The notes under the pieces were generated by a model. It did no database searches. It had not been told where the DNA came from and saw only the letters and a program-made list of their open reading frames with translations. 38,150 nucleotides of DNA from positions 1 to 38,150 of the forward strand of contig SLRP01000203.1 of the NCBI GenBank assembly GCA_007130845.1, given 5' to 3'. Each line of letters starts with the position of its first letter. Positions within the stretch are counted from its first letter, which is position 1. The DNA comes from Kiritimatiellia bacterium (GTDB taxonomy: Bacteria; Verrucomicrobiota; Kiritimatiellia; SLAD01). Below, piece after piece: positions 4,051-12,653 of the stretch. A program made the translations under genes and the position numbers.

Positions 4051-5217
4051 ATGGACAACGACGACAAAAGACCTCGCTTTGCAACCAGGGCCATTCACAT
4101 GGGACAAACCCCTGATCCGACAACGGGAGCAACCATACCCCCGATATACCTGTCCACCACTTACACGCAGGAAAGCCCCGGGGTACATAAGGGATATGAG
4201 TATTCGAGATCACAGAATCCCACCCGCACGGCCCTTGAAGCCTGTCTGTCGGGGTTGGAGGAAGGCGAGGATTGCGCGGTTTTTTCTTCAGGCCTGGCCG
4301 CCACGAATGCTCTATTGCAAAGCCTTCGGCCCGGCGACGGGTTCATAGCGGGTCATGACCTGTACGGTGGAACCTTCCGACTGCTGGAAGATGTGTTCAG
4401 GCCATGGGGCCTGGAAATAGCGCGAGCGGAATCCTCGGATCCTTCTGCTTATGAAAAGGCCATGAAGACGCTTGAGCGACCCAGAATGATATGGATTGAA
4501 ACACCAACCAATCCCCTCGTGGACTTGATTGACATAAGCTCAGTGGCGGAGATCGCAGGAAATAACGGATCTCTGCTGGTGGTGGATAACACCTTTGCGT
4601 CTCCGTGTTTGCAAAAGCCTCTTACCCTGGGCGCAGACATGGTTCTGCACAGCACCACCAAGTATCTGGGAGGGCATTCAGACGTCATTGGCGGCGCCCT
4701 GATAGCAAGGGAAGCCGGGCAACTTGAATCGGTACGGTTCATTCAGAATGCGGCCGGAGCCGTACCCGGACCCCTGGATTGCTACCTCATCCTCAGGGGA
4801 TTGAAGACCTTGGAGATTAGAATGCAAAGGCATTGTGCAAATGCCATGAAACTTGCGGAGGTATTGAACGGCCTGCCGGGAATCTCGCGAGTTTTGTATC
4901 CGGGCCTTCCGGATCATCCGGGACATGAGATCGCGAAAAAACAGATGCAGGGTTTCGGGGGTATGATATCGATAGAACTGGACGACGGGTTTGAACGGGC
5001 CAAAACATTTTGCACAAGCCTGAGAATTTTTTCTCTGGCGGAAAGTCTTGGAGGAGTTGAATCCCTAGTGTCGCATCCGGCCACCATGACGCATGCAAGT
5101 CTTCCGCCGTCGGAACGCCATGCGAGGCGCATCACAGACGGACTGGTCAGACTGAGCGTAGGTATAGAGGATGTACAGGATCTTATCGAAGATATAAATC
5201 AGGCCTTGCAGCCATAG
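4051..5217 (+). CDS. cystathionine gamma-lyase/gamma-synthase family PLP enzyme
   Basis: YSRSQNPT, ETPTNP, DNTFA, HSTTKYLGGHSD (PLP Lys), SLGGVESL, RLSVGIED. Follows cbs, which favours gamma-lyase. Confidence 0.92.
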   Translation: MDNDDKRPRFATRAIHMGQTPDPTTGATIPPIYLSTTYTQESPGVHKGYEYSRSQNPTRTALEACLSGLEEGEDCAVFSSGLAATNALLQSLRPGDGFIAGHDLYGGTFRLLEDVFRPWGLEIARAESSDPSAYEKAMKTLERPRMIWIETPTNPLVDLIDISSVAEIAGNNGSLLVVDNTFASPCLQKPLTLGADMVLHSTTKYLGGHSDVIGGALIAREAGQLESVRFIQNAAGAVPGPLDCYLILRGLKTLEIRMQRHCANAMKLAEVLNGLPGISRVLYPGLPDHPGHEIAKKQMQGFGGMISIELDDGFERAKTFCTSLRIFSLAESLGGVESLVSHPATMTHASLPPSERHARRITDGLVRLSVGIEDVQDLIEDINQALQP

Positions 5218-5234
5218 TCCATGGAACGGAGGCT
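5188..5234. repeat. 47-bp direct repeat, copy 1 (includes gamma-lyase stop codon)
   Basis: GAAGATATAAATCAGGCCTTGCAGCCATAGTCCATGGAACGGAGGCT, 42/47 identical to 5715-5761. Confidence 0.93.
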
Positions 5235-5308
5235 GGGTTCCGAAATGGGACACCCATTCAGTCGATCGGGCTTTTGAAGCCGCTAAAGCGATGACGGACA
5301 AGACGGCG

Positions 5309-5572
5309 TAAGCGGAGTCGGTTAAGGGTGGCGGGCAAGGGTTTCGGTTAAGAGTATTCGAGTAAGGGTGGCCGCGTAAGTGTATCCGGTTAAGGATATT
5401 ATACCGCCTTTGAAAGCGCCGCAAGCATTACCGCTACGCGATGTTCAGAGCGATGGACCACAAGCTTCTCATGCCCGAAAGGTTCCGTCATAATCCCGGC
5501 TCTTTACACTTAACCGGATACACTTAAACGGCTACACTTAATCGGATATCCTTACCCGACTCGACTCCGCTT
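5309..5572. repeat. inverted pair of 13-14-bp tandem repeat arrays (unit ~TAAGNGTATCCGGT) around a ~100-bp spacer
   Basis: Left units start at 5309, 5323, 5336, 5349, 5363, 5377, 5391. Right-arm CTTA ends fall at 5512, 5526, 5540, 5554. Perfect IRs: 5377-5394/5509-5526 (18 bp) and 5310-5320/5562-5572 (11 bp). Confidence 0.88.
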
Positions 5573-5714
5573 CCCCGCCTTCCGATATTCTCGCAGTCGA
5601 AACATCCGCTCATCCCTTTATACGAACAGGCTCCATTCACATCCATGAGACACCACAATAACGCAATCGTTCCGTTGCAATTATGACTCGATTTCGAGGT
5701 CACCCGGAACACAG

Positions 5715-5761
5715 GAAGATATTAATCAGGCCTTATAACCGTAGTCCATGGAACGGAGGCT
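5715..5761. repeat. 47-bp direct repeat, copy 2 (includes tsaD stop codon)
   Basis: GAAGATATTAATCAGGCCTTATAACCGTAGTCCATGGAACGGAGGCT, 527 bp from copy 1. Confidence 0.93.
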
Positions 5762-6796
5762 TGGATAGACATTGTCCGGGGCAGGCGGAGCCGATCCATT
5801 CAGTGACAGTGCACCGGCCAATCCGGCGATCATGGCTGCGTTATCAGTACAATACTCGAATGGAGCAATAAGGAGTCTGGATCCAAGGCGTTCGGACGTG
5901 CTTTCGAGCATCGTCCTGAGCCGTTTATTTCTTGCAACGCCTCCCACGCACGCGATAGCCCGGACCTTCTCATGAACTACCGCATTTTCAAGGCGGTCCA
6001 GCAGGGAATCAAATACAGCTTCCTGATAGGCGGCGGCGACATCTCCAAGGTCTTCCCCTGCCCTGGACTCAGGGTGATTCCTGACATGATACAGCAGGGC
6101 TGTCTTCAAGCCGCTGAAACTGAAACAGCAGTCGCGCCGCATGCCGTCTATCAGGGCTTCACCGCCTCTGCCCTTTCCCTTCAGTATGCCGCGCGGAAAA
6201 TCGATGCGGCCCGGGTTGCCCCCTTGAGCAGCCTTCTCAATTGCCGGCCCGCCCGGATATCCCAGACCTAGAACAGTAGCTCCCTTATCCAGCGCTTCAC
6301 CCGCCGCATCATCCAGGGTATGGCCAAGCACCGTGAAGTTTCGGACGTCGTCGACTCGGACCAGCATGGTATGTCCTCCTGAAACCAGAAGAACTACCAT
6401 TGGACAAATCTCATCCATGGACAAATCCGAACCGAGAAAAACAGAGTAAAGATGAGCTTGAAGGTGGTTAATTCCCAAAAGCGGAATATCTAATCGCAGG
6501 GAAAGCGCCCGTGCCGTTGTTACACCCATTAAAAGCGAGCTTGCCAGGCCGGGACCTTGCGTTACAGCAATGGAGTCAATGTCATACCAATCAGCCCCGC
6601 ACTGGTCCAGAGCTTGTCGTGTTACGTCCGGTAAAGCTTCAAGGTGGCGACGTGACGCGACTTCCGGAACGACTCCGCCATATTGAGCGTGTTCGGCAGC
6701 CTGGCTCAACACAATATTAGATCGTACTTCACGGCCATCAGCGACAACAGCGGCGGACGTTTCGTCGCAAGAGGTTTCGATGCCGAGAATCAGCAT
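5726..6796 (-). CDS. tsaD: tRNA N6-adenosine threonylcarbamoyltransferase TsaD
   Basis: LGIETSCDET, GGVVPEVASRRH, NHLQAH, VSGGHT, DDAAGEALDK, FSFSGLKT, CTDNAAMIA. Confidence 0.97.
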   Translation of the reverse strand: MLILGIETSCDETSAAVVADGREVRSNIVLSQAAEHAQYGGVVPEVASRRHLEALPDVTRQALDQCGADWYDIDSIAVTQGPGLASSLLMGVTTARALSLRLDIPLLGINHLQAHLYSVFLGSDLSMDEICPMVVLLVSGGHTMLVRVDDVRNFTVLGHTLDDAAGEALDKGATVLGLGYPGGPAIEKAAQGGNPGRIDFPRGILKGKGRGGEALIDGMRRDCCFSFSGLKTALLYHVRNHPESRAGEDLGDVAAAYQEAVFDSLLDRLENAVVHEKVRAIACVGGVARNKRLRTMLESTSERLGSRLLIAPFEYCTDNAAMIAGLAGALSLNGSAPPAPDNVYPSLRSMDYGYKA

Positions 6797-11334: not shown

Positions 11335-11910
11335 ATGAAACGCGACAAGATCATACGGCTGATTCTGCTGCGGCAAAGCGGCGATATTTCATGGTGGGGA
11401 AAGCTTCGCCTGCGCCGCGAGCTTATCCGCAACCCTGAAGTCTCGCGGGAACTTGACGAATTGAACTCGCTGTTCGAGGTCGCCGGCAGGGATCCTGAAA
11501 CACCCGGGCCGTCTCCTCATGTTATTGAACGCATTAAGGAAGAAGGGCGGGCCGTGCTGAAACGAAGGGAACGGCTCAACAGCCGTATTGCAATGGGATC
11601 CTTCACGAGATTGTGGCATCCGGCCCTGATTTACGGAACGGTATCAATATTGCTGCTGGCCGCCGGAGTATCTTACATGCTCAGTCCGCGCGAGACTCAA
11701 TATATGGCTGACCATATTGAGACAGAACCGCTTGAGTTCGCAATGACGCCATGGCCTGATATGCTGGATTATAGAATCGAAGAGCTCGAAGATGAACTTG
11801 AAGACATCGAAAAGGGCATTGAGTTGGTTTTATTGCACGAAGATGAGTTCTGGAGTGAACTGGATGCATGGGCGTATGAGCTTATGCGGATGGAGGATGA
11901 ACAGATATGA
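11335..11910 (+). CDS. putative single-pass anti-sigma factor
   Basis: Immediately follows the ECF sigma; ~90-aa basic N-domain, one TM (ALIYGTVSILLLAAGVSYML), acidic C-terminus. Confidence 0.7.
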   Translation: MKRDKIIRLILLRQSGDISWWGKLRLRRELIRNPEVSRELDELNSLFEVAGRDPETPGPSPHVIERIKEEGRAVLKRRERLNSRIAMGSFTRLWHPALIYGTVSILLLAAGVSYMLSPRETQYMADHIETEPLEFAMTPWPDMLDYRIEELEDELEDIEKGIELVLLHEDEFWSELDAWAYELMRMEDEQI

Positions 11911-12653
11911 AAATCATGGCTTTATACCTGGCATTTATCATTGCCGGGACCTGCATTGCATCCGAGGGGATTGAACAGGTTCAGGGACATGGTCGGCACG
12001 GTTATGCAAGGGAGCAGACGGATCAGAATGAAAAACCGAGGGGATTTCGAGGACAGGGTCCCGCTGCTGCCGAATCGGAATCCAGGGAATACCGACCGCT
12101 GGAACGCTGGATGGCCAGTCTGAAGGAAGAGGATCCTGATGAATACGAGCGTCTTGAAAATATAAGGCGGACGGATCCATTGGCTTTTCGTGAAGAAATC
12201 AGGGAGCGCGTGCGCGAAATGCGCTTATTCCAGAGATTACGCCGTCAACATCCGGAACTGCATGAATTCCTTCGCGAACAACCAAGAAACGAGCGCCGGC
12301 ATATGATGCGTTATTTAAGGGGAATGCATGACGATCCGAACGAGGCCGTATCTCCCCGGCACAGACGCAGTGCCGACGAACCGGAAATAAAATCCGTGGA
12401 ATCTGATATCCGTAGGATGGTCCGTGACTACCGTATGGAGGAAGACCCCGGCCGACGGGATATGATAAGGAACGGGCTGAAAGATGAAATCGAGCGGCTG
12501 TATGACATCCGGGAGGCTCAACAACTCGAGAGGATCAAGGCCATGGAAGAGCGGCTGGATCAACTCAAACAGGATCTGATCAGGGACCGGGAAAAACGTG
12601 ACATGCACATTGAAAGCTTCCTGGACGAATTGCTCTCGCCGGCGCCTGAATAA
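11907..12653 (+). CDS. secreted Arg/Glu-rich helical protein (Spy/CpxP-like accessory of the ECF operon)
   Basis: ATGA overlap with the upstream gene, signal peptide MKIMALYLAFIIAGTCIA, highly charged coiled-coil-like body. Confidence 0.6.
   Translation: MKIMALYLAFIIAGTCIASEGIEQVQGHGRHGYAREQTDQNEKPRGFRGQGPAAAESESREYRPLERWMASLKEEDPDEYERLENIRRTDPLAFREEIRERVREMRLFQRLRRQHPELHEFLREQPRNERRHMMRYLRGMHDDPNEAVSPRHRRSADEPEIKSVESDIRRMVRDYRMEEDPGRRDMIRNGLKDEIERLYDIREAQQLERIKAMEERLDQLKQDLIRDREKRDMHIESFLDELLSPAPE

Follow-up and report, generated by a model that had tools for sequence, protein, structure and literature searches.

A 484-bp element, very likely a MITE of the IS1634 family, lies between long direct repeats at the joint end of tsaD and a gamma-lyase-family gene in a Kiritimatiellia bacterium

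According to the published family description (PMC2266710), insertion sequences of the IS1634 family measure 1,500-2,000 bp, share the end consensus C-----YT and, as a norm, produce AT-rich target duplications of 5-6 bp. Two members, IS1549 and IS1634, are reported there to be flanked by long and variable repeats of 8-514 bp, with no mechanistic model proposed (PMC2266710). Non-autonomous relatives are known from Methanosarcina, where MITEs with the IS1634-family partners ISMba11 and ISMac10 are listed with direct repeats of 6 or 0 bp (PMC3852290). Within the coverage of our literature search, which left most subscription journals and supplements outside, no MITE with long variable duplications was found, nor was a mechanism for them.

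The element considered here, which lies in a window of 38,150 nucleotides (the whole stretch of DNA that was analysed), bears resemblance to both of these systems without being identical to either. Like the Methanosarcina MITEs (PMC3852290), it is short, multicopy and non-autonomous and has IS1634-family partners; unlike them, with their 6 or 0 bp, it is flanked by repeats of 14-93 bp which vary from copy to copy. Its parents, like IS1634 of Mycoplasma mycoides and IS1549 of Mycobacterium smegmatis, pass the NCBIfam IS1634 model and have C-----YT tips, and the repeats reported for these two, 8-514 bp, compare with 14-93 bp around the MITE and 21-576 bp around its full-length relatives; this likeness is set by the published description of the two elements (PMC2266710) and by the family model, and not by sequence. 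Unlike IS1634 and IS1549, the window element consists of 484 bp of non-coding DNA with a foreign core and resides in a Kiritimatiellae-type genome. The original prediction had called its mode of integration unusual, which is true among IS elements, but the mode is not new, as long variable duplications are already reported for IS1634 and IS1549 (PMC2266710). What the locus adds is a direct connection, by end homology, of a MITE to a transposase clade, together with evidence that the trait belongs to this clade in general and extends over several phyla. We consider it very likely that positions 5232-5715 are an IS1634-family MITE which was moved in trans, and that its target-site duplication arose by 5'-staggered joins and gap repair. 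The features of the locus to which the following paragraphs refer are these:

4051 to 5217, + strand: gene for a Cys/Met-metabolism PLP enzyme (cystathionine gamma-synthase/gamma-lyase family), 388 aa; an open reading frame that has its stop and the 9 codons before it in the left repeat copy
5189 to 5231 (up to 5188-5234 with ambiguous bases), no strand: left copy of the target-site duplication, core 43 nt, 0 bases from the left tip
5232 to 5715, + strand: very probable MITE, a non-autonomous IS1634-family derivative of 484 bp; multicopy, with bounds from an eight-copy alignment and tip searches
5232 to 5261, + strand: left end, a 12-bp terminal inverted repeat with the GGGACACCC block, sharing homology with the end of IS1634-family elements that is distal to the transposase
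5344 to 5394, no strand: left arm of an internal inverted repeat, made of tandem units of about 14 nt; the arms are 51 nt long and 82% complementary
5509 to 5559, no strand: right arm of the internal inverted repeat, with 14-nt units from 5505 to 5560
5643 to 5715, - strand: right end, a 12-bp terminal inverted repeat with about 60 nt more, sharing homology with the transposase-proximal (5' untranslated) end in the parent IS clade
5716 to 5758 (up to 5715-5761), no strand: right copy of the target-site duplication, core 43 nt, 0 bases from the right tip
5726 to 6796, - strand: tsaD (tRNA t6A37 threonylcarbamoyltransferase subunit), 356 aa; an open reading frame that has its stop and the 11 codons before it in the right repeat copy

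Both flanking genes are assigned by family models, the lyase-family gene by NCBIfam NF005871 (536 bits, cut-off 513, with a match that reaches profile position 387 of 389) and tsaD by TIGR03723 (379 bits, cut-off 296). A cystathionine beta-synthase gene is found upstream of the lyase-family gene. Between positions 4500 and 6500 there is one long direct repeat, 5188-5237 against 5715-5764, of 50 nt, 88% identity and a spacing of 527; the core duplication, with bounds set by the consensus tips of the element, is identical at 38 of 43 positions (5189-5231 against 5716-5758; binomial P ~3e-18 at p=0.25). Beside this core there are ambiguous bases, one on the left and three on the right, which are also compatible with the element tips. 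A recount of 5188-5234 against 5715-5761 gave the 42 matches out of 47 that had been reported at the outset, and the gene-end translations given then for both copies were correct on re-reading: the + strand gene terminates in ...EDINQALQP and a stop inside the left copy, the - strand gene in ...PSLRSMDYGYKA and a stop inside the right copy, and each copy contains a "ghost" of the opposite gene's end. The left copy thus has the working stop of the + strand gene together with the ghost of the tsaD end, and the right copy the working stop of tsaD together with the ghost of the end of the + strand gene.

As the element breaks the assembly in many places and many of its copies are found at contig ends, the possibility had to be weighed that a repeated element was wrongly assembled in a metagenome bin and that the repeat or the insert was produced in this way; its probability is practically negligible. 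Contigs from four public runs, which were assembled independently and are labelled as soda-lake, salt-lake and alkali-sediment metagenomes, bridge the left junction (X1 record 1, 4700-5270; X4 record 25, 5183-5276) and the right junction (X1 record 7, 5531-6300; X2 record 15, 5506-5844; X3 record 23, 5590-5845; X4 record 31, 5542-5837) with 0-2 differences, where it should be considered that one of these runs may be the source sample of the window and that the four are not all independent. No contig joining across the insert, and hence no allele with an empty site, was found in the four runs, whose contigs drop rare variants and include no record that spans the whole stretch. The two repeat copies, moreover, differ at five positions and are therefore not a collapsed duplicate.

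The insert itself was described originally as non-autonomous and without a transposase, a description with which its anatomy agrees. It is small (484 bp) and has no transposase gene; the sole long open reading frame in it, 5065-5424 on the - strand, runs beyond the element, and in an alignment of eight copies there are indels of 14 or 28 nt between copies, therefore no reading frame is conserved. The interior has no similarity to the flanking genes, which speaks against the possibility, raised beforehand, that it might be a decayed tandem duplication of them. From the same eight copies a consensus 12-bp terminal inverted repeat, CCTGAGTTCCGA, was derived for the tips, inboard of which the left and right ends are unlike each other. 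Folded over its full length, the element forms a long hairpin (z = -5.6). A retroelement inserted by target-primed reverse transcription, which makes variable duplications but would have a defined 3' tail, 5' truncations and no terminal inverted repeats, was considered and set aside, as both ends are inverted repeats and a scan of 4800-6200 against Rfam at E<=1 gave no match.

By BLAST of its interior the element was found on 20 contigs of its own assembly, many times at contig ends; this assembly comprises 2.2 Mb in 250 contigs, is 84% complete and has many contigs which end in repeats. Sixteen left and 13 right ends were located and all outer flanks compared. Both flanks are available for ten insertions, eight of them on single contigs and two by linking of contig ends (C230 with C243 and C192 with C16), and a direct repeat is present at every one of the ten, with lengths of 14, 15, 41, 42, 43, 43-47, 49, 55, 75-76 and 92-93 nt, where 43-47 nt refers to the window locus. 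The element therefore has what is expected of a MITE, multiple copies each with a target-site duplication, and the check proposed originally, whether other copies also sit between long direct repeats, has a positive answer (14-93 bp) at all ten readable insertions. The ten repeat pairs are mutually unrelated in sequence, and they lie within 0-1 nt of the tips in nine insertions, the repeat on C149 starting 12 nt from one tip. The count excludes C55, where the right end is missing and there is no repeat, as well as C155 and six unpaired ends at contig edges; an apparent 107-nt "repeat" at C155 is a single stretch of DNA between two partial copies and not a duplication. A 1.9-kb copy on C217, a candidate for the autonomous form, is a normal MITE copy into which an IS256-family element has inserted, the latter having inverted repeats that differ from those of the MITE and a duplication of 8 bp.

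Identity between the two copies of a repeat ranges from 55/55 down to 38/43, and this wide range indicates that the MITE family has been active over some time; the window pair is the most diverged, so that the window insertion is among the older ones. Scans of public genome contigs and public metagenome contigs with an exact 23-nt pattern of the left end gave 0 matches each, the records of the own genome perhaps being excluded from them.

Integrative and cis-mobilisable elements rebuild the 3' end of the target gene, using a recombinase and a fixed att core. They often restore this end, and the outcome resembles that in the window, a direct repeat preserving the gene ends on either side of an insert. 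The locus might accordingly be seen as a small integrative element or a remnant thereof, brought in by a tyrosine or serine recombinase, with the 47-bp repeat as attL and attR; the copies are only 88% identical, as diverged att copies can be. Site-specific integration would leave the same core in all flanking repeats, and no such core is shared by the ten pairs: at the other nine insertions the repeats show no relation to one another in sequence and vary between 14 and 93 nt in length, all repeats adjoin 12-bp terminal inverted repeats, and the element ends match those of a DDE-transposase IS. Unlike the repeats of integrative elements, those seen here are locus-specific and stand beside transposon-type inverted repeats, and we regard integration by a site-specific recombinase as extremely improbable. 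Of the two modes suggested originally, a long staggered cut fits the data, whilst the site-specific one fails, each locus having repeats of its own sequence and length.

The affiliation to the IS1634 family, in which we place the element, comes from its ends. A search of 61 genomes, consisting of the own genome (G000) and 60 relatives, gave IS1634-family transposases that exceed the cut-off in 17. The genome G007, which belongs to the same bacterial family, encodes the C-terminal 296 aa of a transposase of this kind (NF033559, 257 bits, cut-off 100), and the stop codon of this fragment lies 26 nt from a tip that matches the left end of the MITE over 28-30 nt with 83-93% identity (six copies, BLAST); the remainder of the gene was not found in the G007 assembly. 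The tip pattern occurs in two of the 12 genomes of the family, 14 times in the own genome and once in G007, and a reversed control pattern 0 times. From the relatives of the G007 transposase 80 genome loci and 80 metagenome loci were taken, and at 15 of the former and nine of the latter the first 24-31 nt of the MITE are found again at the tip distal to the transposase. At 20 loci the elements are bounded at both ends by the same 12-bp repeat and measure 1,635-1,668 bp, which falls within the 1,500-2,000 bp of the family, and an intact full-length copy encodes a 510-aa DDE transposase with PF01609. The tip CCTGAGTT fits the family consensus C-----YT, a weak agreement on its own, with three positions specified.

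At its other end the MITE is also related to these elements: the right-end 75 nt are identical to the transposase-proximal ends of nine full-length IS copies at 51-54 of 75 positions, with shared blocks, a homology seen only in anchored global alignments, and blastn-short with the right end returned no IS match. The MITE thus has terminal inverted repeats in common with an autonomous IS, the homology covering 24-31 nt on the left and about 75 nt on the right, and can be described as a composite in which about 30 nt come from the distal end of the parent and about 75 nt from its proximal end; the remaining 380 nt or so, which make up most of the interior, are of other origin and have no counterpart in the parent IS.

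Long duplications are a property of the full-length elements too. Enough flank for a comparison of repeats was available at 43 full-length loci, and at 27 of these there are direct repeats of 21-576 bp which lie one IS length apart, are mostly perfect and abut the tips; at the other 16 no flanking repeat was found in the windows compared. A 659-bp repeat at L158 was set aside, as it does not abut recognised tips. According to the record titles, the transposase clade with long duplications spans Planctomycetota, Kiritimatiellae, Omnitrophota, groups of the candidate phyla radiation, Bacteroidota and Myxococcota. A 2,017-bp element in G022 has a transposase of the same family and a tip core that is similar (AGTTCC, at an identical offset); its duplications are 6 bp in four of five copies (flanks read by eye), and its transposase is 26% identical to that of the long-duplication clade. 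The long variable duplication is therefore common to MITE (14-93 bp) and IS (21-576 bp), and, as the MITE demonstrates, a short substrate without coding capacity receives it too.

The DDE transposase belongs to the partner elements and was not found inside the own genome: NF033559, PF01609 and the G007 transposase fragment gave 0 matches in the 84%-complete assembly. That no gene for an IS1634-family or DDE_Tnp_1 protein was found there counts against our reading, and any supplier of transposase within this organism would be putative. With no IS1634-family transposase found there and an intact IS256-family transposase gene present, it could be argued that another enzyme, either this resident IS256-family transposase or an undescribed one, mobilises the element, and that the IS1634-like tips are coincidental or a relic. 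The IS256-family copy nested in a MITE copy, however, has inverted repeats of its own and an 8-bp duplication, the end homology of 30 nt and about 75 nt falls exactly at IS1634-family tips in many genomes, and full-length IS1634-family elements show the same long repeats. Mobilisation by a different enzyme is, on this evidence, very unlikely.

The state of the site before insertion can be approached through G003, a genome of the same family with about 66% DNA identity, in which tsaD and the lyase gene are convergent, overlap by 4 nt (TTAA) and have no insert, and which holds a single copy of the gene junction. In G009 the two genes are 191 nt apart and the spacer has a 19-bp inverted repeat of its own; in the other genomes of the family tsaD and a lyase-family gene were not found together on one contig. 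This "empty site" should be considered with caution as it comes from a same-family relative only about 66% identical in DNA, the comparison genomes including none of the same genus. The original expectation, that relatives would show an empty site with overlapping genes, is thus borne out by G003 but not by G009, which has the 191-nt spacer instead. For the window locus an ancestral overlap of 13 nt is implied if the stop of the right copy was used, and of 19 nt if that of the left copy was used; the shorter would be the likelier one, because the right-copy ghost ends ...QAL and a stop, like the G003 gene.

That the empty site is known only from so distant a relative (about 66% DNA identity) leaves some room for repeats that were not made at insertion, in the form of a pre-existing tandem duplication or of later slippage or repair round the hairpin, a long hairpin being able to provoke replication errors. 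It is difficult to see in this way why the repeats lie within 0-1 nt of the tips in nine of ten MITE insertions and why full-length elements in several phyla likewise have repeats adjoining their tips, and the G003 junction is single-copy; we hold this origin of the repeats to be highly improbable.

A duplication made at insertion remains the preferred reading, and it could have come about as follows. A DDE transposase of the IS1634 family, acting in trans, would have moved the MITE into the overlap of the gamma-lyase-family gene and tsaD, where the two 3' ends of the element would have been joined to opposite strands of the target at points 43-47 bp from each other (in the clade, tens to hundreds of bp) that are staggered in the 5' sense. 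The gaps would then have been filled by host repair, so duplicating the stretch between the joins. Because this stretch held both stop codons, the left copy would complete the + strand gene and the right copy tsaD. The strand transfers would have been widely spaced and were probably uncoupled, a geometry which is read from end products alone. The initial proposal, in which the element entered a tail-to-tail overlap and duplicated the whole of it, leaving both genes intact, is supported by the multicopy state of the element, by the long, locus-specific direct repeats round its other copies, by the overlap without an insert in G003 and by the dissimilarity of the interior to the flanking genes.

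The lengths and edges of the duplications offer limited further hints as to how the joins may be made. No helical phasing of the lengths was found at 10-11 bp (R 0.10-0.20, p 0.25-0.69, n=35), and the best period in a scan of 3-20 bp, 15.6 with a Rayleigh z of 4.3, is unremarkable after 171 periods. Repeats tend to start A-rich, with A at position 2 in 17 of 30, and to end T-rich, with T at the last position in 17 of 30, a pattern which would fit two similar, separate joins and is only suggestive after correction for multiple positions. An apparent C before and G after the repeat are partly an artefact of the way in which the boundary is drawn beside C...G tips. Median duplication length is 45.5 for the MITE against 93 for full-length elements (Mann-Whitney p 0.002, n = 10 and 25), a comparison in which the hosts differ and the copies are not independent. 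It is conceivable, if rather doubtful, that in this IS1634 clade the ends are joined by independent, uncoupled transfers, each at its own A/T-rich site, and that the MITE of about 0.45 kb behaves likewise with a shorter spacing. If true, the length of the duplication would be set by the transposase and the size of the element and not by a fixed synaptic geometry, and the long duplication would be a gene-sparing device at overlapping or abutting gene ends in compact genomes. The clade is large and well conserved, its tips are clear and numerous recent insertions have repeats that are perfect; together with the MITE it provides a practical system for working out the mechanism of long duplication.

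An insertion of this kind can hit the joint end of two overlapping genes, one of them tsaD, and spare both. Four of the five differences between the window copies fall within 7 nt at the stop of the lyase-family gene, three of them inside the former 13-nt overlap, and by eye the codons concerned would alter TsaD in the left copy and truncate the other gene in the right copy; the release of each copy from double coding would allow such divergence. The surroundings of the eight fully assembled copies were judged from mechanical calls of open reading frames of at least 110 aa with no homology check. Five lie between convergent frames, and at three (the window locus, C171 and C217) both stops are inside the two repeat copies. 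Such a placement at gene ends would be the outcome of purifying selection where the genome is compact, and the long duplication would enlarge the set of harmless insertion sites; target preference and survivorship are inseparable with these data. In seven of the eight the 3' end of a gene is in a repeat copy or no more than 30 nt from one, and at C209 the closest such 3' end, that of the frame at 11595-12248, stops one base before the repeat.

A repeat family indigenous to the lineage may be the source from which the MITE, the 484-bp non-coding derivative of an IS1634-family element, captured its core. A repeat of approximately 330 nt, distinct from the MITE and without IS1634-type tips, was found in a sister genus (genome G003; loci L033, L034, L036 and L037), and it has in common with the MITE core (window 5505-5600) a module of approximately 75 nt comprised of the 14-nt units and the adjoining G/C-rich stretch. 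Weaker matches to the 14-nt units were found in four genomes, G001, G009, G011 and G029.

Nearer the tips of the MITE, a short block occurs twice:

Window 5246-5254: GGGACACCC, a block of 9 nt close to the distal tip
Window 5646-5654, same orientation, element + strand: near-copy of the block, approximately 65-75 nt from the proximal tip

The 9-nt block is conserved both in the MITE and, at matching positions, in full-length IS elements of several phyla; it may be a subterminal site for transposase binding or regulation.

Two further entries concern IS1634-family elements themselves:

L098 2856-4417: full-length IS copy on a Phycisphaerae chromosome, transposase frame open for 348 aa only
Genome G022 (same class), loci L059-L062, L047 and L058: second IS1634-family element, 2,017 bp, many copies

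Other full-length IS copies encode 510 aa, and the Phycisphaerae copy may be frameshifted. The 2,017-bp element resembles the MITE clade in carrying the AGTTCC core in its tips; however, it differs in generating ordinary 6-bp duplications, at a TTAG/CTAA-like target.

Other MITE copies in the window's own assembly (G000), and the tsaD/lyase junction of a genome of the same family (G009), presented the following arrangements:

Contig C217:12589-14481 (locus L010): interrupted MITE copy, flanking repeat 92-93 bp
Contig C155:5489-6110: two partial MITE copies in like orientation, spaced 107 bp
L024 (G009:C122) 1238-1428: 191-nt spacer at the tsaD/lyase junction, with a perfect 19-bp inverted repeat at its two ends

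The C217 copy is split by an IS256-family element of approximately 1.45 kb, the single copy in the assembly, with its own inverted repeats, an 8-bp duplication and a 398-aa transposase (profile match to NF033543, 372 bits). On C155 the right part of the MITE precedes the left, an order that may be what is left of two copies joined head-to-tail by recombination between flanking repeats. The G009 spacer occupies the convergent junction that holds the MITE in the window, and may itself be a small mobile element of another kind; no clear target duplication was seen there. Contig ends in the G000 assembly also share flanking repeats, of 42 nt (C230/C243) and 41 nt (C192/C16), which shows each pair to be neighbours across a MITE copy, and these repeats could serve for scaffolding the assembly.
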